Virus record (IMG/VR): IMGVR_UViG_2582580966_000010 | Reading direction: 5' to 3' (one strand) | Length of the DNA stretch: 14,048 nucleotides | Source of the DNA: a virus | Lineage: Duplodnaviria; Heunggongvirae; Uroviricota; Caudoviricetes | Shown here: positions 1,964 through 12,447 of the stretch, one piece after another | Position numbering within the stretch: position 1 is the first letter of the stretch | Layout: every line of letters begins with the position of its first letter | Notes under the pieces: model-generated | Databases searched by the model: none | The model's input: only the letters and a program-made list of their open reading frames with translations | Told to the model about the DNA's origin: nothing | Translations under genes and position numbers: made by a program

Positions 1964-2146
1964 TCACGATTTCAGCGCAATGACCAGTTTTGCCAGCCCA
2001 TACAGTATCGGAGACACAGCGATACCAACCGCCACCCACTTAATAGCAAAAGCCAGCGCTCTGCTGATGTCATCAGTTACTGGCGCTTTCAGTTCAAGGC
2101 CGTTTTTCATAGTCAACCTCAACAGAATTCGTTTATACTTTTCCAT
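1964..2146 (-). CDS. Hypothetical 60-aa tail-anchored membrane protein between endolysin and Rz
   Basis: ATG at 2146 with a strong SD (AAGGGAG). Charged N-terminal half and a hydrophobic C-terminal helix (ALAFAIKWVAVGIAVSPILYGLAKLVIAL). An upstream in-frame ATG at 2179 is also possible. Confidence 0.45.
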   Translation of the reverse strand: MEKYKRILLRLTMKNGLELKAPVTDDISRALAFAIKWVAVGIAVSPILYGLAKLVIALKS

Positions 2147-2179
2147 GTTCTCCCTTGCCTTATCCAAGGTCAGAAACAC

Positions 2180-2302: not shown

Positions 2303-2836
2303 TTATCTGTCAATTCCCCAGCACGCCAGCGCACTCTCCTGGTCGCGACGGGATACCTGACCGTAACAGTTGTTTGAGCGAATACGGCAGTCTCTGCCAC
2401 CGTCCTTAATCCACCAGCGAATCGCTTCGCATGCTCCCCTGCGATCACCTGCATTAATTCGTCTGTAAAACGTCGACGGGAAACACTTACCGGGACCAAT
2501 GTTGTACGGACAGAATGACGCGATCCCCGCTTTCTGGGGTTCGGTCAGCGGCACTCTGATGTTTTTCTCCACCCACGCCAGCGCTTTATCACGCTCAATG
2601 GCGTTAACCTGGTCGCATTTTTCCTTCGACAACTTCATGCCCGGAACGACAGGTTTGCCATCCACCATGATGGCACCACGGCAGATGGTCCAGATACCCG
2701 CACCATCACGGTATGCCGTGGTGTGGTTGCCTTCTTTTTCATCCAGAAACTGGTCGAGAATTTCAGGCGCAGACGCACCAGCGGCAATCAGCGCCAGAAC
2801 GGCAGCCGACAGGCCGTATCTGATTTTTGCGTTCAT
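2303..2836 (-). CDS. R: SAR (signal-anchor-release) endolysin, T4-lysozyme-like muramidase (GH24)
   Basis: Gly/Ala-rich weakly hydrophobic N-terminal SAR segment (YGLSAAVLALIAAGASAPEIL), followed by the catalytic E-x8-D-x5-T spacing (EGNHTTAYRDGAGIWT) seen in phage 21 R-type lysozymes. It pairs with the upstream pinholin. Confidence 0.9.
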   Translation of the reverse strand: MNAKIRYGLSAAVLALIAAGASAPEILDQFLDEKEGNHTTAYRDGAGIWTICRGAIMVDGKPVVPGMKLSKEKCDQVNAIERDKALAWVEKNIRVPLTEPQKAGIASFCPYNIGPGKCFPSTFYRRINAGDRRGACEAIRWWIKDGGRDCRIRSNNCYGQVSRRDQESALACWGIDR

Positions 2837-2961
2837 GGATATTTATCAGGATTTATCGGTTCCGAATCCCTGGATATGTTAAGTCTTCAGCCCGCCAGTG
2901 GTGGGCACTGGCGTAAACTCAACAATGCGAGATGGCTGCCTCGCAAAGATAAGGAACAGAT

Positions 2962-3237
2962 ATGAGTGAAGAAAATAGCAAAGAGAATACAGCACTTTTT
3001 GACAGAATTTTTACTCTTGAGTTACAGGTCGGTTTTCTTCTCCCAAAGATAATCAAAGCAATGGATGCACTAAGTAAAAATAACGCTGTGTCAGATTACC
3101 TGATCGCCGAAATGGAACATCTAATTAAAGAAATACCAAAGACAGTTGCTCGTGATGATAAAAGATTCCTCAAGGCTGCTGAAGATGCTCTTTCAACAGT
3201 GAAGCGCAGCTTAGATGCGCCGCGCGATCAAGAATAG
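2962..3237 (+). CDS. Hypothetical 91-aa helical protein, antisense to the late operon (moron-like)
   Basis: ATG at 2962 with SD AAGGA at 6-nt spacing. AT-rich. The opposite strand over 2837-3169 has no ORF. It is followed by its own plus-strand intrinsic terminator. Its 3' end overlaps the 3' end of the converging 176-aa gene by 68 bp. Confidence 0.5.
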   Translation: MSEENSKENTALFDRIFTLELQVGFLLPKIIKAMDALSKNNAVSDYLIAEMEHLIKEIPKTVARDDKRFLKAAEDALSTVKRSLDAPRDQE

Positions 3238-3700
3238 TTTCTTTCATTTCATCTGCTGCAAGCACCTCATTTTTTGTTGGGGTGCTTTTTTTCAATTCAG
3301 CGATATAGCACTCCAGTTTTTCAATGCGTGATTCAATATCATCGTTTTCTGACCGCAATGCCGTCGGTGGCGTCTTCAGAGAACCAGTAATTATTCCCGG
3401 TAGTTTTCCTCTGTAGGTTATCAACACATCCTGCGCCTCTAAAATTATGGGGCGCTTTTCCGGCAACGGACCATCCCCTTCACATAACCCGGCAGCAACA
3501 TCCATGAAAAACTGCTTCGCCTGCTTTTTCGCCTCAGCTTCGTAAAACTCCAGCGTGGCATCTTCAGTACGGTCAAGACTAATCGCCACATCTGGCAACA
3601 ACAGTGACGGATACCCACCAATTTCCAGTGCCACAGTAACAGTAATCTTATTCGGGTAATTATTTATCCCTTTAACAACCAGTTCGTATTTTTTCTTCAT
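3170..3700 (-). CDS. Hypothetical 176-aa protein translationally coupled downstream of the holin
   Basis: ATG at 3700 lies 4 nt after the holin stop, with a GGAGAG SD inside the holin 3' end. Predicted C-terminal coiled coil (ENDDIESRIEKLECYIAELKK). No motif I recognise. Confidence 0.6.
   Translation of the reverse strand: MKKKYELVVKGINNYPNKITVTVALEIGGYPSLLLPDVAISLDRTEDATLEFYEAEAKKQAKQFFMDVAAGLCEGDGPLPEKRPIILEAQDVLITYRGKLPGIITGSLKTPPTALRSENDDIESRIEKLECYIAELKKSTPTKNEVLAADEMKETILDRAAHLSCASLLKEHLQQP
3261..3292 (+). terminator. Intrinsic terminator for the plus-strand 91-aa gene
   Basis: AGCACC...GGTGC stem followed by TTTTTTT on the plus strand only; the minus-strand RNA has no U-tract after the hairpin. 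The loop is long (14 nt), so confidence is moderate. Confidence 0.4.
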
Positions 3701-3704
3701 CGCT

Positions 3705-3920
3705 TTACTCTCCCCGCGCCGCCTTACGACGGTCCTCTCTGATTTTGAAATACAGGTTAGTCAGATATGTCAGCAGCCCAAACAGCAGACTTCCCAGTAC
3801 GCCTATTGCCGCCCACTGAGACGGGGAAACCCTGTCCAGCAGCTGCAGGAACCAGTAGCCCGTTCCCACCGCTGACGTGGTGTATGACACACCTGTTGTG
3901 ATTTTTTCCATCTGGTACAT
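3705..3920 (-). CDS. S: Class II holin (phage 21 S-like pinholin)
   Basis: 71-aa ORF. The sequence [51 protein letters not shown] is near-identical to S21/EssD-type holins as remembered. Possible dual-start motif M1-Y-Q-M4. Strong SD (GGGAG). Confidence 0.9.
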
Positions 3921-3995
3921 ACCCCGTCTCCCGCAATCCGGAAGCTCACAACAACAAGAGGGGCATCAGCTCACACCGACAGCCCCTGCGCATGG

Positions 3996-4265
3996 TTACA
4001 TCATCATTTCGCCGTCAGGCTGAGGCTCACTGCTACCATCAGGCTGAGACCCGACGCCATCTGAAACAGCACTGTCATCCGCAATGCCTTCCGGCTCCGG
4101 AACAGTCGGTGCGCCCAGCAGTTCATCCAGAATGGCATCCACTTCTGCATCAAGACGCGCCTCAAGGTTCTGCCGAAGTTGCTGTTTCAGTGCGCTTCTG
4201 ACTTCTTCAGAGCGCAGGACTTCCTTCACTGCTTCAGCAGTGACCAGCGATTTTATTTCTGACAT
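3996..4265 (-). CDS. Hypothetical small acidic protein (about 89 aa)
   Basis: ORF with a helical N-terminal region (MSEIKSLVTAEAVKEVLRSEEVRSALKQQLRQNLEARLDAEVDAILDELLG) and an acidic, low-complexity C-terminus. Start chosen at the internal ATG (4265) because the upstream extension is low-complexity. SD is weak. Confidence 0.4.
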   Translation of the reverse strand: MSEIKSLVTAEAVKEVLRSEEVRSALKQQLRQNLEARLDAEVDAILDELLGAPTVPEPEGIADDSAVSDGVGSQPDGSSEPQPDGEMMM

Positions 4266-4633: not shown

Positions 4634-6577
4634 TTACGGGTTATTCACTTCCACTGCGATACTGTCAATCAGTACCGGGTAAGTCGCATTTTTAGTGATA
4701 TCGGTCACGCGCAACTTGTCTGCCGTAAACGTGCCGACCGGAGACTGCGACAGCATGAATGGTGTCCCGTCCTTACCATCAATGACCGGCGTCACCTCAA
4801 TACTGTTGTTACCGGCAAAACGGAAGCCCAGCGTATGCCATTCGTTATTAAATGCGCCGAATGACCCCAGCTTCGTGTTCTGCGCCGTGTTTCCTTTGTG
4901 ATACATCACGTTAAGGTCTGTGGCATCGCTCTGTACGTAAAACGATGCCAGCAGGTTATGACCGGCATTACCTTCCAGTGTGACGCCCTGAGGAAGCGAA
5001 GAAACCGGCCAGTACAGCGCCAGTGCGTACTGATTAGCCGTAAGCGCGCCATCGAGTTTAAAACGACAACTGACAAGACCACCTTTACCCAGCAGGTCCG
5101 CACCATTACCAGCATCATGCTCAAGGTACCAGGGGGCTCTTCCTGTTTCCTTGGTCAGTTTCATTGCCTTACCCCCGCTGGCTCCGGCATCATCCACGAT
5201 TTGAGCCTTGCCACCTCCGGCAGCCCAACCCTGTGGTGTCAACCGTCCTTCAGACTCAGATGCCCGGTAAGCAAATAGCGTACTCATCGTCGTGGTGTCT
5301 GCGGGTGGCGTGGACGGTTTTGATGGTGTATCAGGTGACGGCTTCTCATCCGGTGGTGTCACGGTCTGCCCGCGCATCAATTCAGCCGTGCGCCCTGCAT
5401 GGAGCATAATAGCTGAGGCCAGACGGTCTGAAATGACGCCCCTGCGTGCCCATGAGCTGAAATGGCTGTCACGCTGTGTCGAAACAAAACTGCCCTGGGT
5501 TCGGGATGCTGCACCGTAATACCCGACAGCCACAATATCCGGGTCTTCCGCCGGAGCATTCGTTGGCGTGCTCTGTCCATTCTCATCCGTCAGGAACGGT
5601 ACAAAGAAAATATTCTGTGCTTCCCTGCCCTTGTAACCGCCATATACCGCCTCATATTTATCGGCGTTAAGATTCTTCCAGTAATACGTGGTGTCACCAC
5701 AAATCCACGGCACCGAGCCAGCACTTCCGCCAACACACTGTGCAGAATATGCAGCCATATCAGCCCTGAACTGCTGCACCATAGTGGTAAACAGGCCGCT
5801 GTGCTGCTGACTGCCGTCCGCAAGATCATTTTCCCCCTGCATCCATACCACGGCCAGAAGCCTGTTTTTCGGGTTCTTCGACAGCGCCGCTTTTGTACGG
5901 AAGAGAAAATCCTGATACAGCGGTTTACCCACTCCCCAGCGGGCTGAATTTGCCGATGCGCCAGACGTTTCGCTGAACGTGCCGTCATTACCCACGGTTA
6001 AACCAGCCCCGCCACGGCAACAGGGCACCAGAAGAATCCCGGCATTCTGCGGGATATAAGGCAGAAGTTTTTTGGCAATATGCAGCCCCTGACCGACAGT
6101 CCCGTACTGGCCCTTACTCAGGTCTGCATGAGGATGGTTAAGTGCGCTCATGTCCTGAACATCATGCAGACAGTGGTCTGCCGGAATAACGTCATTGTAT
6201 GCACAGGTATCACCACCCGGCGTCACAGTGCTGCGACGGGCCAGCTGCTTAATACGGGAGTCAGGGCGATCATAGGTCTCCGGCAGAGGAAGCCCCTCAC
6301 CATAGGCCATACCGTTCGACTGCCCGGCCAGGGGAATAACGTAGTAATACTCCGGTTCAGTGGTAGCCACTCCCGGAGAGCCACCAGCCCCTGTGTCGGG
6401 CACAACCACAGGCGTGGTCACATCACCCTCTGCGGCAATGGCCTGCATCAGTGTATAAGGCGTGATAGCCACAGGACTGCCAAACGGCTGCCAGCCTTCC
6501 TTCAGTTTTTGTGTCAGTCGCTCCGCAAGGTCTGACGGCGACGCCGCCCTGACCACGTCATAGTGTTTAAATGCCAT
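4634..6577 (-). CDS. nanS-p: Prophage-encoded sialate O-acetylesterase (NanS-p-like; DUF1737 N-domain plus SASA/SGNH esterase plus C-terminal lectin-like domain)
   Basis: 647-aa ORF. Start chosen at MAFKHYDVV (ATG 6577) with a strong SD (GGAGGA); the ORF track begins 10 codons upstream. It carries the SASA-family catalytic serine motif GQSN (YYYVIPLAGQSNGMAYGE) and the conserved block VVWMQGENDL. Its position between the tRNA/cargo site and the holin matches the large esterase ORF downstream of stx in Stx phages. Confidence 0.8.
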   Translation of the reverse strand: MAFKHYDVVRAASPSDLAERLTQKLKEGWQPFGSPVAITPYTLMQAIAAEGDVTTPVVVPDTGAGGSPGVATTEPEYYYVIPLAGQSNGMAYGEGLPLPETYDRPDSRIKQLARRSTVTPGGDTCAYNDVIPADHCLHDVQDMSALNHPHADLSKGQYGTVGQGLHIAKKLLPYIPQNAGILLVPCCRGGAGLTVGNDGTFSETSGASANSARWGVGKPLYQDFLFRTKAALSKNPKNRLLAVVWMQGENDLADGSQQHSGLFTTMVQQFRADMAAYSAQCVGGSAGSVPWICGDTTYYWKNLNADKYEAVYGGYKGREAQNIFFVPFLTDENGQSTPTNAPAEDPDIVAVGYYGAASRTQGSFVSTQRDSHFSSWARRGVISDRLASAIMLHAGRTAELMRGQTVTPPDEKPSPDTPSKPSTPPADTTTMSTLFAYRASESEGRLTPQGWAAGGGKAQIVDDAGASGGKAMKLTKETGRAPWYLEHDAGNGADLLGKGGLVSCRFKLDGALTANQYALALYWPVSSLPQGVTLEGNAGHNLLASFYVQSDATDLNVMYHKGNTAQNTKLGSFGAFNNEWHTLGFRFAGNNSIEVTPVIDGKDGTPFMLSQSPVGTFTADKLRVTDITKNATYPVLIDSIAVEVNNP

Positions 6578-6788: not shown

Positions 6789-6796
6789 GCCCATAG

Positions 6797-6823
6797 AAAA
6801 GCCCCTCCGGAGAGGGGCTTTTT
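6797..6823. terminator. Bidirectional intrinsic terminator downstream of the TerB operon
   Basis: AAAA-GCCCCTC-cgga-GAGGGGC-TTTTT: a perfect 7-bp GC stem with an A-run and a T-run on either side. Confidence 0.55.
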
Positions 6824-7063
6824 ACAGTGGTAGTGTAGACAATTTTGCATGGTGCCGGGTGCCTCCCGGTGAGTTCAGTATCAGCACCTGAACCCGCACA
6901 GAAAGGATAAGGGTCGGTGACAAAACACCAGTTGCTGATTGCCCCTCCGCACAGGGGGATTCACCATGCCAGTTTCTTTTAACAAACTCCCCGCAAACCA
7001 GACAACAGTCAACCGCCTGAATTGTGAGGTATTTAAAAATTTCAACGGGTAACTGATACCCTG

Positions 7064-7225
7064 CTAATCGCCTGATGCTTTCTTTTTCAGCAACGGGAAA
7101 GCAACAACCACCACACCCGCCACCAGCACACCGTCAGCCAGCACTGACATTATCCGGCTGCTGAAGTCCACCATCACCACCATCACTACCAGAAACAGCA
7201 GGAGCGCAACCACAGCCAGACGCAT
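7064..7225 (-). CDS. Hypothetical 53-aa hydrophobic microprotein (predicted two TM segments), coupled to the TerB-like gene
   Basis: Translated by hand from the reverse complement: MRLAVVALLLFLVVMVVMVDFSSRIMSVLADGVLVAGVVVVAFPLLKKKASGD. The ATG at 7225 lies 8 nt after the TerB stop. It falls below the 60-aa cutoff of the ORF track. Confidence 0.4.
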   Translation of the reverse strand: MRLAVVALLLFLVVMVVMVDFSSRIMSVLADGVLVAGVVVVAFPLLKKKASGD

Positions 7226-7233
7226 TTTTACCG

Positions 7234-7665
7234 TCACAGATGATTCTCCAGACGAAGGCCCAGAACACCGGCAATCTCTTCCAGCACCTTGCGCTCTTCC
7301 GGCTCTATTTCGCCGTCTGCTTCGGCAATGGCCACCGCCACATCCAGCACGTCTTCCGCTTCACGCGTATCGTGTTTCACATCCTCGATCTCACGTAACG
7401 CCGCTCGACGACCAATTTTAAAGTTCGTATCCAGCTGACCGATAATGGTTGCGCTAATCGCATTAATTTCTGACGTAAACGCGGACAACGCAGGCTGGTT
7501 ACGCAAGACCTGCTCGATCTTCGCTTTCTCTGAAGCCTCACATTCACCATCTGCATAGGCCACCAGATAGGCAGCATTAATAACCGCCTGTGCCAGATCA
7601 CGTTTCTCAAACTTTTTAATTTCCACTGCCGCTCGGCGGGCTTTTTTACCAAAAATACCAAACAT
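7234..7665 (-). CDS. TerB-family (tellurite-resistance TerB-like) protein
   Basis: 143-aa ORF from MFGIFGKK (ATG 7665, SD AAAGGA). Two TerB-type repeats (AAYLVAYADGECEASEKAKIEQVL and DVAVAIAEADGEIEPEERKVLEEIAGVLGL) match the helical motif of TerB proteins. Confidence 0.7.
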   Translation of the reverse strand: MFGIFGKKARRAAVEIKKFEKRDLAQAVINAAYLVAYADGECEASEKAKIEQVLRNQPALSAFTSEINAISATIIGQLDTNFKIGRRAALREIEDVKHDTREAEDVLDVAVAIAEADGEIEPEERKVLEEIAGVLGLRLENHL

Positions 7666-7835
7666 CGTGACGTTCCTTTGGGTGGGTGAGCCAACGCCCG
7701 GGAGCGATCTGCCCACAGAGAAAGTCACACTGACCACTCCGTAAGCTCACCCCCGAAAGGCTCTGTGGTTGATATGCGCCGGGCGTGGCGCGGATACAAA
7801 AAAGGCCCGCAAAAGCGAGCCGGGAAAAATAAGTC

Positions 7836-7912
7836 TGGCGCGTTGTACTGGATTCGAACCAGTGACCGATTGCTTAGAAGGCAATTGCTCTGTCCGGCTG
7901 AGCTAACAACGC
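7836..7912 (-). tRNA. tRNA-Arg (anticodon UCU)
   Basis: Hand-folded cloverleaf: acceptor GCGTTGT/ACAACGC, D-arm GCTC...GAGC, anticodon stem ATTGC/GCAAT with loop CTTCTAA, T-arm CTGG-TTCGAAT-CCAG, then discriminator and an encoded CCA. Confidence 0.8.
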
Positions 7913-7928
7913 AGGATACAGATAATGA

Positions 7929-8002
7929 ACCGCCTTCGGGGATCCGAACTCCGCGCAACCAGCTTCGAAGGCTGGCGCTCTTTCCTGATGAGCTAATGGC
8001 GG
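7929..8002 (-). tRNA. tRNA-like gene, Arg (anticodon UCG), imperfect and without encoded CCA; possibly degenerate
   Basis: Cloverleaf with anticodon stem CCAGC/GCTGG and loop CTTCGAA. The acceptor stem has one A-A mismatch and the T-stem one A-C mismatch. The 3' end is followed by TCA rather than CCA. Confidence 0.5.
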
Positions 8003-8009
8003 TATGTGA

Positions 8010-8085
8010 TGGTGGCCCTTGCTGGATTTGAACCAGCGACCTGGCGATTATGAGTCGCTCGCTCTCACCACTGAGCTAAAGGGCC
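8010..8085 (-). tRNA. tRNA-Ile2 (anticodon CAU, ileX/ileZ-like; a Met assignment cannot be excluded from sequence alone)
   Basis: Sequence GGCCCTTTAGCTCAGTGGTGAGAGCGAGCGACTCATAATCGCCAGGTCGCTGGTTCAAATCCAGCAAGGGCCACCA. The anticodon stem-loop matches E. coli ileX-type tRNA as remembered. Perfect acceptor stem and an encoded CCA. Confidence 0.8.
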
Positions 8086-8113: not shown

Positions 8114-8827
8114 TCAATAATCAAGCCCTTGCCTGGATACATATCTGTCTGGCGGGAAGCCATAATAGCGGTGAAATACAGAAATAAAGTAGGACCTGCT
8201 TGAATAACCGCATTTTTCTGCTATAGCCTGTCCATATCCATGCCGGGAACATAACATATTTACAGCAACACGCATCCGCTCTTCCAGCAACAAGCGACTG
8301 AACATGCCCCCTTCATTTTTCAGTTTTGTCTTTAACAAACTCTCACTCATATGCAACTGTAGAGCAATCGCACAAAGCGTCCAGCTTGCTGATATATCTG
8401 TCTGAATTATCGCCCTGACTTTGGCACTTATGCTGGATAAACATCCACTTAAAAACAATGACATCCGTTCATCTGTTTCAAACAGAGACAGGCAGGCCAT
8501 CATAAGAAACATATCCGTGGCCTCTCCGGAAAATCCCTGGCTGGTAATTAAAGCCGCAGCCAACGCAGGATTGTTGGGTTCCAGCAACAGGTAAAGCGGA
8601 ATGTCAGTCAGACGAGTCCTCGTCAGCTTATGCTGACTTTCCAGATATTGACTTACGACGGATTCGCTTATATCGACAATTTTAACTTTGCCATAATGCA
8701 TAAGGAAAAGCTCCCTGATGCATTTGGTGGCCAGAACAACTGAGCCTGGCTTAAGTGACAACGTATCCTTTTCAAGAAAAATATTAATTGGGGAGCAAAC
8801 CATGATAACTGAACAGACAACAGCCAT
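8114..8827 (-). CDS. AraC-family transcriptional regulator (AppY-like, no sugar-binding domain)
   Basis: 237-aa, AT-rich ORF. The C-terminal dual HTH region (WTLCAIALQLHMSESLLKTKLKNEGGMFSRLLLEERMRVAVNMLCSRHGYGQAIAEKCGYSSRSYFISVFHRYYGFPP) is typical of the AraC family, and the N-terminus MAVVCSVIMVCS resembles AppY. Confidence 0.75.
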   Translation of the reverse strand: MAVVCSVIMVCSPINIFLEKDTLSLKPGSVVLATKCIRELFLMHYGKVKIVDISESVVSQYLESQHKLTRTRLTDIPLYLLLEPNNPALAAALITSQGFSGEATDMFLMMACLSLFETDERMSLFLSGCLSSISAKVRAIIQTDISASWTLCAIALQLHMSESLLKTKLKNEGGMFSRLLLEERMRVAVNMLCSRHGYGQAIAEKCGYSSRSYFISVFHRYYGFPPDRYVSRQGLDY

Positions 8828-9384: not shown

Positions 9385-10206
9385 CTATCGCGTTACCCTC
9401 TTTAACTGCCGCTCCGCCCATGCCTCTTCAATGTCAAACCGAACCACCAACGTATCGTAAAAGCGTTTCACTGATTTTTTCCACGTATCAAGCGTGATAG
9501 CACTCGTCACTTTGCATATGGCATTAAATGCCTCCGTTGATGGTAGTCTTTCACAGCCACGACCACCACAACGCTGGCAGTCTCTGATAACAGGCATACC
9601 ACGTTTTACCGACTCTTCACGATGAATGGCGACACCACGCCCACGGCAATCCTTACAGGCGGTGGAAACCTCACCCTTTCCGCCACACTCCGGACAGGCA
9701 ACTTTTACCACCTCCCTGACTTTTTTCCATTCTTCCCAGTAAGACGGATACACACCTTTCGTACACTTTGCCCATACCGGCGGCTTACCATCCGGATACT
9801 GGACCTTGTTTGTAAAAACTACGCTTTCAATAAATTTTTCCCCATAGCAACAAGGGCACTGCTTTTTACTCGCTGCGCTGCGGGCATAATCCTCAAAAGC
9901 GTACGAAGCCATAATGCGCATCACTACCGGTTTTATTTCTGCCGGGAGTTTTCTTAACGCCGCCACGCGATCACACCGACTGAGTGCATATTCTGTCAGC
10001 AATTCTGTTGCCCGCTCTCTGTCATTCATACTAATGCCCATTTTCCCAAGGAACGCAGAAAACCCCATCCCAGCCCGATTCTGTGTCATGCCCTGCGCGG
10101 CCATCACATCAGTGATACTCAGCGCATCTTTCGACGTTGAGGCCGATGCATCAGTCAGGCCGGGGGATTTTGGGGAGTAGTATTTCGGTAAATCTTCCAG
10201 TTTCAT
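9385..10206 (-). CDS. Q: Late-gene antiterminator Q (QuuQ-like)
   Basis: 273-aa ORF. The N-terminus MKLEDLPKYYSPKSPGLTD...SITDVMAAQGM matches Qin QuuQ-type Q as remembered. Several CxxC pairs suggest a zinc-binding domain. It lies between rusA and pR'/tR'. Confidence 0.8.
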   Translation of the reverse strand: MKLEDLPKYYSPKSPGLTDASASTSKDALSITDVMAAQGMTQNRAGMGFSAFLGKMGISMNDRERATELLTEYALSRCDRVAALRKLPAEIKPVVMRIMASYAFEDYARSAASKKQCPCCYGEKFIESVVFTNKVQYPDGKPPVWAKCTKGVYPSYWEEWKKVREVVKVACPECGGKGEVSTACKDCRGRGVAIHREESVKRGMPVIRDCQRCGGRGCERLPSTEAFNAICKVTSAITLDTWKKSVKRFYDTLVVRFDIEEAWAERQLKRVTR

Positions 10207-12080: not shown

Positions 12081-12236
12081 TTACTCCTCAGGTTCGTAAG
12101 CTGTGAAGACAGCGACCTCCGTCTGGCCGGTTCGGATTCGTACCTCGCAGAGGTCTTTCCTCGTTACCAGTGCCGTCACAATGACGGTTAAACAGATGAC
12201 GATCAGGGCGATTAGCATCGCCTTTTGCTGCTTCAT
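12081..12236 (-). CDS. hok: Hok-family type I toxin (identical in sequence to HokD/RelF as remembered)
   Basis: Hand translation gives MKQQKAMLIALIVICLTVIVTALVTRKDLCEVRIRTGQTEVAVFTAYEPEE (51 aa): one TM helix plus a periplasmic tail with conserved Cys. Confidence 0.9.
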   Translation of the reverse strand: MKQQKAMLIALIVICLTVIVTALVTRKDLCEVRIRTGQTEVAVFTAYEPEE

Positions 12237-12293
12237 AGCCTGCTTCTCCTTGCCTTTCGGCACGTAAGAGGCTAACCTACGTGTGTAGAGCAT
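12081..12293 (-). CDS. mok: mok-like overlapping reading frame (same frame as hok, upstream start)
   Basis: In-frame upstream extension MLYTRRLASYVPKGKEKQA running into hok, as in hok/mok/sok loci where mok translation is needed for hok translation. Confidence 0.55.
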   Translation of the reverse strand: MLYTRRLASYVPKGKEKQAMKQQKAMLIALIVICLTVIVTALVTRKDLCEVRIRTGQTEVAVFTAYEPEE

Positions 12294-12447
12294 AGATATG
12301 GCCTCAGATTAATGTTAAGCGTCTTGCCGGACGCGTAATGTTAACTGGGGCTTTTCTCTATCTGCCTTTTGGTGTTCATGCCTGAGACAGATAGCCTCAA
12401 GCACCCGCTGCAATTCTACTTAACTCTCCTTTTCCCGCAAACCGTTT

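Follow-up and report, generated by a model that had tools for sequence, protein, structure and literature searches.

A moron-like antisense cassette nested in the 3' end of a long-form ydfR gene at the holin-lysozyme junction of a lambdoid prophage

Introduction

What occupies the space between the holin and lysozyme genes of a lambdoid prophage, and what might a small gene that points against the late operon do there? These questions are raised by a 14,048-nucleotide stretch of DNA from a tailed virus (Caudoviricetes; IMG/VR record IMGVR_UViG_2582580966_000010), hereafter the window. According to both the map of open reading frames (ORFs) and the sequence, 868 bp (positions 2837-3704, the S-R interval) lie between its two lysis genes, and two ORFs converge in them. 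The first, of 176 residues on the minus strand (3170-3700), begins with an ATG 4 nt past the holin stop, with the Shine-Dalgarno (SD) sequence GGAGAG 8 nt upstream of the ATG. The second, a plus-strand ORF of 91 residues (2962-3237) that we call gene A, has the SD sequence AAGGA (2951-2955) 6 nt upstream of its ATG. They overlap tail to tail over 68 bp (3170-3237). The interval and both ORFs had been described in an earlier reading of the letters alone (the sequence-only reading), whose coordinates all hold against the ORF map and the sequence. That reading took the interval for a two-gene insertion that looked different from the ydfR content of prophage Qin, recognised no motif in either protein, and suggested lysis-timing control or a defence or exclusion module as possible roles.

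Our analysis leads to another picture, to which we give a probability of about 0.6: a long form of ydfR with a low-GC, antisense moron cassette nested in it, which would be expressed in the lysogen and shut off by late transcription. At its core, the comparisons described below demonstrate an autonomous, constrained and mobile antisense gene with a one-way terminator inside a Q-dependent late operon.

Results

The 176-residue ORF is a long form of ydfR

The match of residues 1-112 of the 176-residue ORF (3365-3700, minus strand) to Pfam PF07041 (DUF1327, the YdfR family) scored 150.6 bits (gathering cut-off, 25; E 1.5e-44) and spanned profile positions 1-92 of 93. AlphaFold2 predicted a beta-sheet and a helix for residues 1-73. 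The Prokaryotic Genome Annotation Pipeline (PGAP) uses the name "YdfR family protein" for the homologue in a 98.4%-identical Escherichia coli locus and in thousands of other loci. Therefore, a motif is present in one of the two proteins, and the ORF that had been set apart from Qin ydfR is a longer form of the same family.

Of 5,426 complete E. coli genomes, 3,092 had ydfR-like DNA at the S-R junction, although the majority of matches were confined to the DUF1327 part. The commonest class among 80 IMG/VR loci had a 114-residue YdfR and about 50 bp from the ydfR stop to the lysozyme start. ydfR is thus the usual occupant of the E. coli S-R junction. Its products fell into short forms of 113-118 residues and long forms of 161-329 residues; the latter add a conserved "LRSEKDDIESRIEKLE" helix and variable tails, and the family is modular. 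When the window was compared by blastn with a locus of the commonest short form (L012), positions 2700-2904 and 3365-3800 proved to be adjacent in the latter, which places an indel of about 460 bp at 2905-3364. The extra DNA is accordingly about 460 bp, and not the 868 bp of a two-gene insertion. A relic of the short-form C terminus, SLRQCPPLAG followed by a stop (compare ...GSLKTPPLA and stop), can still be read at 2884-2915 (minus strand).

The functional data that we found in the literature cover Qin YdfR only (PMC13232886): its first 72 residues bind the catalytic, N-terminal half of RNase E, the protein co-purifies with RNA, and its overproduction is not toxic. The N-terminal domain that binds RNase E in Qin YdfR is conserved in the YdfR of the window.

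Gene A is a constrained gene of a small family

Gene A matched phrog_18136, a family without known function (E 5e-53), and homologues 58-72% identical to it occurred in Salmonella, Enterobacter and Citrobacter. The ratio of nonsynonymous to synonymous substitution rates (dN/dS) of gene A was 0.08-0.22 between genera and 0.11-0.19 within E. coli, compared with 0.9-1.9 for an antisense control frame. On this comparative evidence, gene A is a genuine constrained gene and more than a chance antisense frame.

The gene A product is acidic (pI 5.2) and predicted to be soluble, and AlphaFold2 modelled it as a three-helix bundle with a mean predicted local distance difference test (pLDDT) score of 75. 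It has no transmembrane segment (maximum 19-residue hydropathy, 1.3), nor does the ydfR tail described below (0.38). Searches of Pfam, NCBIfam and PADLOC, and of PDB and BFVD with Foldseek, gave no significant match that would tell its function or that of the partner ORFs, and PHROGs matches of gene A and its partner ORFs were to families of unknown function only. Against the defence models of PADLOC-DB v2, the best E values of gene A were 0.007 and 0.047, and the 176-residue ORF had no match. A profile search of 1.84 billion representatives returned nine relatives, all in the same small family, and a profile scan of genome contigs returned no match. Among isolated phages, gene A was present only in Escherichia phage CharmingMan (63% identity). 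No mention of it was found in the literature, and the literature on morons and holins held nothing specific. A type I toxin-antitoxin system of the hok/sok kind was considered for this locus and rejected: neither product has a transmembrane segment, and no Rfam family matched in 2780-3420.

Gene A lies in a mobile cassette with a one-way terminator

Blastn comparison with the Salmonella, Enterobacter and Citrobacter loci delimited a common plus-strand cassette of about 430 bp (2868-3292, extending to 3336 in Citrobacter), which consists of about 95 nt upstream of gene A, the gene A ORF and a terminator. The intrinsic terminator (3260-3293, plus strand) has its stem at 3260-3287 followed by TTTTTC and lies inside the ydfR tail; a scan of both strands found no minus-strand terminator at this site. 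Nine pairs form the stem, four of which show compensatory changes across genera (RNAalifold). The stem reads AAGCACC/GGTGCTT in the window and AAGCGTC/GACGCTT in Citrobacter, and Salmonella has a different hairpin. The plus-strand-only site and its covarying stem bear out the proposal, already made from the letters alone, that the plus-strand gene is autonomous with its own SD sequence and a one-directional terminator.

The DNA in front of gene A, including its 5' leader (2868-2961, plus strand), is conserved in four genera and contains a candidate -10 element (TATGTT, 2875-2880), hairpin 1 (2893-2913) and hairpin 2 (2927-2944), followed by the SD sequence. In hairpin 1, none of the eight pairs was broken in seven sequences, two showed compensatory changes, and the G-U pairs are possible on the plus strand only. 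At the position of hairpin 2, other genera have a different stem. The minimum free energy (MFE) fold of the leader holds both hairpins. No Rfam family was found for the leader or the overlap region, a match to L10_leader (E 0.12) being below threshold. A sigma-54 or sigma-E promoter in the conserved upstream block was judged by eye and was unconvincing.

An invariant ATGGCTG stands in the loop of hairpin 2 (window 2932-2952; L011, 3971-4000; L008, about 3971-4000). It starts a mini-ORF of six codons in E. coli (MAASQR and stop) and of five codons in Salmonella (MADYL and stop). The Citrobacter and Enterobacter versions share the gene A reading frame and would add 10 residues to the protein. 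Furthermore, its GGCUG is complementary to an invariant CAGCC at 2888-2892, so that an alternative pairing is possible. A leader peptide translated from this ATGGCTG was rejected, as the SD spacing is too short.

The GC content was 0.38-0.40 over 2900-3200 versus 0.54-0.58 in the holin and lysozyme genes. Outside E. coli, one position of the cassette was between tail genes M and L and another was behind the tape-measure gene; a third was flanked by a 485-residue gene and an HNH/terminase block, and the fourth, in Citrobacter, was upstream of the holin gene. Gene A is antisense to the late genes on both sides at four of five positions; the right-hand neighbour in Citrobacter is on the strand of gene A. 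The cassette was also paired with DUF1327 domains from 51% to 100% identical to that of the window. Because it co-occurs with domains only 51% identical, cassette and DUF1327 domain recombine independently. Comparison of these loci demonstrates that the cassette is mobile: prophages of four genera carry it at late-region positions that are unrelated to one another. By its sequence it bears the marks of a moron, of which only a recognisable sigma-70 promoter is missing, in keeping with the earlier view of the S-R junction as a moron site.

Two of these contexts hold further accessory genes. In three Salmonella loci (L004, L006 and L007), a second antisense ORF of 132 residues (4822-5220, plus strand) follows about 560 bp beyond the cassette, flanked by tail gene M and the tape-measure gene, giving two backward-facing accessory genes per tail operon. 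In the Enterobacter-type context, the cassette adjoins the 485-residue gene (L203, CharmingMan, PP925830, 678-2511; L008, 4359-5816). This gene is annotated as a glycosyltransferase in CharmingMan and is a possible lysogenic-conversion gene in its own right.

The ydfR tail and the small ORF that accompanies gene A

The tail of the long-form YdfR comprises the 64 residues 113-176 (3170-3364, minus strand) and runs antisense through the gene A terminator and the last 22 gene A codons. AlphaFold2 predicted helices at residues 118-137 and 143-173, that is, a helical hairpin, with pLDDT of about 70-76. In every context outside E. coli, gene A shares a tail-to-tail overlap with a late-strand small ORF of 51-59 residues, which has its own ATG and a strong SD sequence. 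This small ORF, seen in Salmonella, Enterobacter and Citrobacter, is co-oriented with the neighbouring late genes and homologous to residues 118-176 of the window's YdfR; the long-form tail is therefore the small ORF fused to DUF1327.

Is the tail a product in its own right, or does it follow from gene A on the other strand? In the part outside the overlap (3238-3364), the ydfR frame had a dN/dS of 0.47-0.60, compared with 1.06-1.24 for the control frame; the DUF1327 domain itself had 0.48. The tail also stays in frame in the 176-, 211- and 305-residue forms. These data suggest that the tail is probably translated. In the 68-bp overlap, the differences between the window and another locus (L023) were three synonymous and one non-synonymous in the gene A frame, and none and four in the ydfR frame. 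The last 22 residues of the tail are set by the gene A frame. Constraint at the protein level is weak here: the small ORF had a dN/dS of 0.6-1.0 between genera, and its "KKSxPxK" motif is the antisense of the gene A terminator. PGAP annotates only the first 114 codons of ydfR, as a pseudogene flagged "incomplete; missing C-terminus".

An obligate partnership of gene A and the ydfR tail is not supported, because the two break independently: in one locus (L024) gene A is intact and the ydfR tail frameshifted, whereas in five others (L030-L034) the 176-residue ORF with its tail is intact and gene A has lost its start by a 100-bp deletion.

Prevalence of gene A and related layouts

Gene A-specific DNA was detected in 45 of the 5,426 E. 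coli genomes, in 29 of which the match covered at least 80% of the query. Among the 40 gene A records listed, 14 had either a shorter match or a partial one split in the manner of the 100-bp deletion. The deletion occurred between CAAAGATAA repeats (window 2944-2952 and 3045-3053) and removed the SD sequence, the start and the first 28 codons of gene A; it was present in 5 of 15 E. coli-type IMG/VR loci, the five named above.

The convergent layout, regarded as unusual before, turned out to be common with other partners. In a second IMG/VR sample, a 176- or 183-residue YdfR was accompanied by an unrelated convergent 86-residue gene (phrog_2572), with a 53-bp overlap, in at least 72 of 79 loci. 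Phage 86 carries a 268-residue ydfR with a convergent phrog_1853 gene, and Salmonella and Citrobacter loci carry a ydfR-tail-like 63-residue ORF with a phrog_2411 gene. Phage PhiR5_1 is a hybrid: it retains the last 20 gene A codons and the gene A terminator but carries the phrog_2572 gene. Scans found no terminator in the phrog_2572 and phrog_1853 versions, and no credible convergent gene was found in the 296- to 329-residue ydfR forms.

The 63-residue ORF (L015-L019, about 3001-3430) shares its first 30 or so residues with the ydfR-tail-like small ORF (MTLEQRVEILER...KKSTPGK) and ends in ...ITGSLRAPVKL, resembling YdfR residues 104-113; its segments appear in an order like that of a permuted ydfR 3' end. 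The convergent gene that it overlaps, of 83 residues (phrog_2411), is a different one and lies just upstream of the holin gene.

The late region around the interval

Everything from the Q antiterminator gene (9385-10206) to Rz is on the minus strand of the window. This strand has the late genes of a lambdoid prophage, namely DUF968, RusA, Q, an AraC-type gene, three tRNAs, a TerB-like gene, the small RNA STnc100, a NanS-p-type esterase, DUF1378, DUF826, the holin gene, the interval, the lysozyme gene and Rz/Rz1. The upstream neighbour of ydfR is a class II (S21-type) holin gene (3705-3920, minus strand; 71 residues; Pfam PF04971 Phage_holin_2_1, E 9e-33; phrog_9876/phrog_20 holin). On the downstream side of the interval is the lysozyme (endolysin) gene (2303-2836, minus strand; 177 residues; PF00959, E 3.3e-24; phrog_7 endolysin); by inspection only, the N terminus of its product looks like the signal-anchor-release (SAR) type, for which it is a candidate.

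No stx gene was found in the late region of the window by Pfam, PHROGs and Rfam annotation. Where Stx phages have stxAB, between Q and the NanS-p-type esterase, the window has STnc100 (145.6 bits) and the three tRNA genes (6789-8085, minus strand), and the same region holds the TerB-like ORF (7234-7737) and the AraC-family ORF (8114-8827). A sok match in Rfam (117 bits) at 12231-12406 (minus strand), upstream of the DUF968/RusA/Q block, marks a hok/sok-type antitoxin RNA and thus a genuine type I toxin-antitoxin system in another part of this prophage. Between the lysozyme and Rz genes lies a 71-residue ORF (1964-2179, minus strand; phrog_1115, no known function) with a hydrophobic C-terminal stretch. 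This slot is another variable accessory slot of the lysis cassette, occupied in related loci by different small ORFs or an antirepressor gene.

Discussion

How would a gene be used that lies head-on to the late operon of its prophage? The steps that we propose follow known morons and convergent phage transcripts by analogy. In the lysogen, the late operon would be silent and gene A would be transcribed alone, its terminator ending the transcript before it could continue, as antisense RNA, into ydfR and the holin gene. Upon induction, Q-antiterminated late transcription would cross the cassette head-on, and, as the hairpin has no T-run on the late strand, it would go on to reach the endolysin gene. 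Gene A would then be silenced through polymerase collision and antisense pairing. Our best guess for its role is a benefit to the lysogen through protein binding, and not a function in lysis.

Several observations weigh against this view of a lysogen-expressed moron. No sigma-70 consensus promoter was found in 2837-2961, so that we can only infer where gene A transcription starts and that it takes place in the lysogen. Thermodynamically, the leader fold does not stand out (z = -0.98), and sequence and fold libraries offer no functional clue. Gene A is rare in E. coli (45 of 5,426 genomes) and about one-third of the sampled copies have lost its start by the 100-bp deletion; therefore, it is dispensable. 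Finally, wherever gene A was seen it came with a small minus-strand ORF or a ydfR tail, a companion that a single-gene moron does not need.

That constant company suggests an alternative, in which gene A and the ydfR tail or small ORF form a two-component module (a lysogeny/lysis switch, an exclusion system or a toxin-antitoxin-like pair). Late transcripts would make one part and the antisense unit the other, with mutual control through the 68-bp overlap and perhaps binding of the two proteins as a helical bundle. The small ORF is indeed open, with its ATG and strong SD sequence, in Salmonella, Enterobacter and Citrobacter, and it is co-oriented with late genes wherever gene A occurs; the predicted helical hairpin of the tail and the predicted three-helix bundle of gene A would suit such binding. 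Other long ydfR forms have convergent small genes too (phrog_2572, with its 53-bp overlap, and phrog_1853), and the ydfR-tail-like 63-residue ORF is paired with a fourth, phrog_2411. However, the between-genera dN/dS of the small ORF is 0.6-1.0, its "KKSxPxK" motif belongs to the gene A terminator read in antisense, and its C terminus is dictated by the gene A frame. Moreover, the genes break independently (L024; L030-L034), the 296- to 329-residue ydfR forms have no credible convergent gene, and no transmembrane segment or toxin-like feature is present in either product. We therefore consider a two-component module unlikely, although it stands foremost among the alternatives.

If the cassette were instead a neutral or decaying passenger in E. 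coli, the tail of the 176-residue ORF would have arisen because ydfR happens to run on into inserted DNA. PGAP takes this view, flagging ydfR as lacking its C terminus, and the 45 of 5,426 genomes with gene A DNA, the start-site deletion in about one-third of sampled copies and the evolution of the last 22 codons as the gene A frame dictates are in line with it. The strong purifying selection on gene A in four genera is not, and neither is the tail at 3238-3364, whose dN/dS of about 0.5 equals that of the DUF1327 domain and differs from the 1.06-1.24 of the control frame. The tail is in frame in the 176-, 211- and 305-residue forms and is predicted with fair confidence to be helical. A passenger thus appears improbable, ranking behind the two-component module. 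Even more doubtful is a tuning of lysis, in which the plus-strand RNA would pair with the S-R late mRNA, or the proteins would act on holin or endolysin, to change endolysin dosage or lysis timing. The cassette lies exactly between the holin and endolysin genes in E. coli and just upstream of the holin gene in Citrobacter, and since Qin YdfR binds RNase E and co-purifies with RNA (PMC13232886), a link to RNA decay at the locus is conceivable. Nevertheless, the Salmonella and Enterobacter cassettes lie between tail genes or next to terminase genes, far from the lysis genes; neither protein has a membrane segment, unlike holin regulators; and the commonest ydfR form occupies the S-R junction without the cassette. 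Each of these explanations is less well supported than a long-form ydfR with a nested, lysogen-expressed moron.

A broader speculation, about as improbable in our view as the passenger, is that cassettes are exchanged in a slot at the 3' end of ydfR. Long-form tails or stand-alone small ORFs and at least four unrelated convergent genes (phrog_18136, 2572, 1853 and 2411) would then be two-part modules, with one partner made in the lysogen only and the other from the late transcript only. Such modules might couple a host-directed activity, possibly via the contact of YdfR with RNase E, to the transition from lysogeny to lysis, for example as an exclusion or defence switch.

For annotation, these results mean that most of the presumed insert is an ordinary ydfR gene. 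What is new is an uncharacterised moron in a long form of the known family ydfR, the moron type of gene being well known. Gene A itself is a small, well-defined and rare moron encoding a strongly constrained 91-residue protein, mobile in four genera and without known match, which makes it a compact candidate lysogenic-conversion gene. Beyond this one gene, convergent small genes that overlap the ydfR end recur at the holin-endolysin junction in lambdoid prophages of E. coli. A link between ydfR and RNase E was reported recently, and the layout is relevant to studies of ydfR or of prophage accessory genes. We regard the overall interest as moderate and the recurrent cassette slot at the ydfR end as the part most worth following up.

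Comparison with known systems

The closest known relative of the window's long-form ydfR is the gene of prophage Qin. Both have DUF1327, here in the first 112 residues, both lie between a class II holin gene (essQ type) and a lysozyme gene (rrrQ type), and both are co-oriented and closely coupled with the holin gene. However, the window form has 176 residues instead of 103-118, its extra 64-residue helical tail overlaps a convergent gene, and RNase E binding has been shown for Qin YdfR only (PMC13232886). The phrog_2572 arrangement (e.g., phage PhiR5_1, PV340545) has the same order of holin gene, long ydfR, convergent gene of about 86 residues and lysozyme gene, and its left flank is the same as that of the window up to 2912; its convergent gene, in contrast, is unrelated to gene A (22% identity), and no terminator was detected in it.

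The concept of the moron came from comparisons of HK97 and HK022, and lambda bor and lom are examples. Like lambdoid morons, the gene A cassette is an addition within a late operon that relatives collinear in other respects lack; it brings its own terminator and SD sequence and has a GC content below that of its surroundings. Unlike them, it does not lie between genes but inside the 3' end of a resident one, where the two coding regions overlap by 68 bp, and it always travels with a small co-oriented ORF; no sigma-70 promoter is recognisable, and its cargo family is uncharacterised. Convergent antisense units are likewise known from temperate phages, namely the lambda OOP RNA opposite the 3' end of cII and the P22 sar RNA. 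The short convergent transcript predicted for gene A would resemble them in ending at its own terminator inside the 3' end of the opposite-strand gene. Gene A has no Rfam match, however, and, unlike these units, encodes a conserved protein under purifying selection and not just a regulatory RNA.

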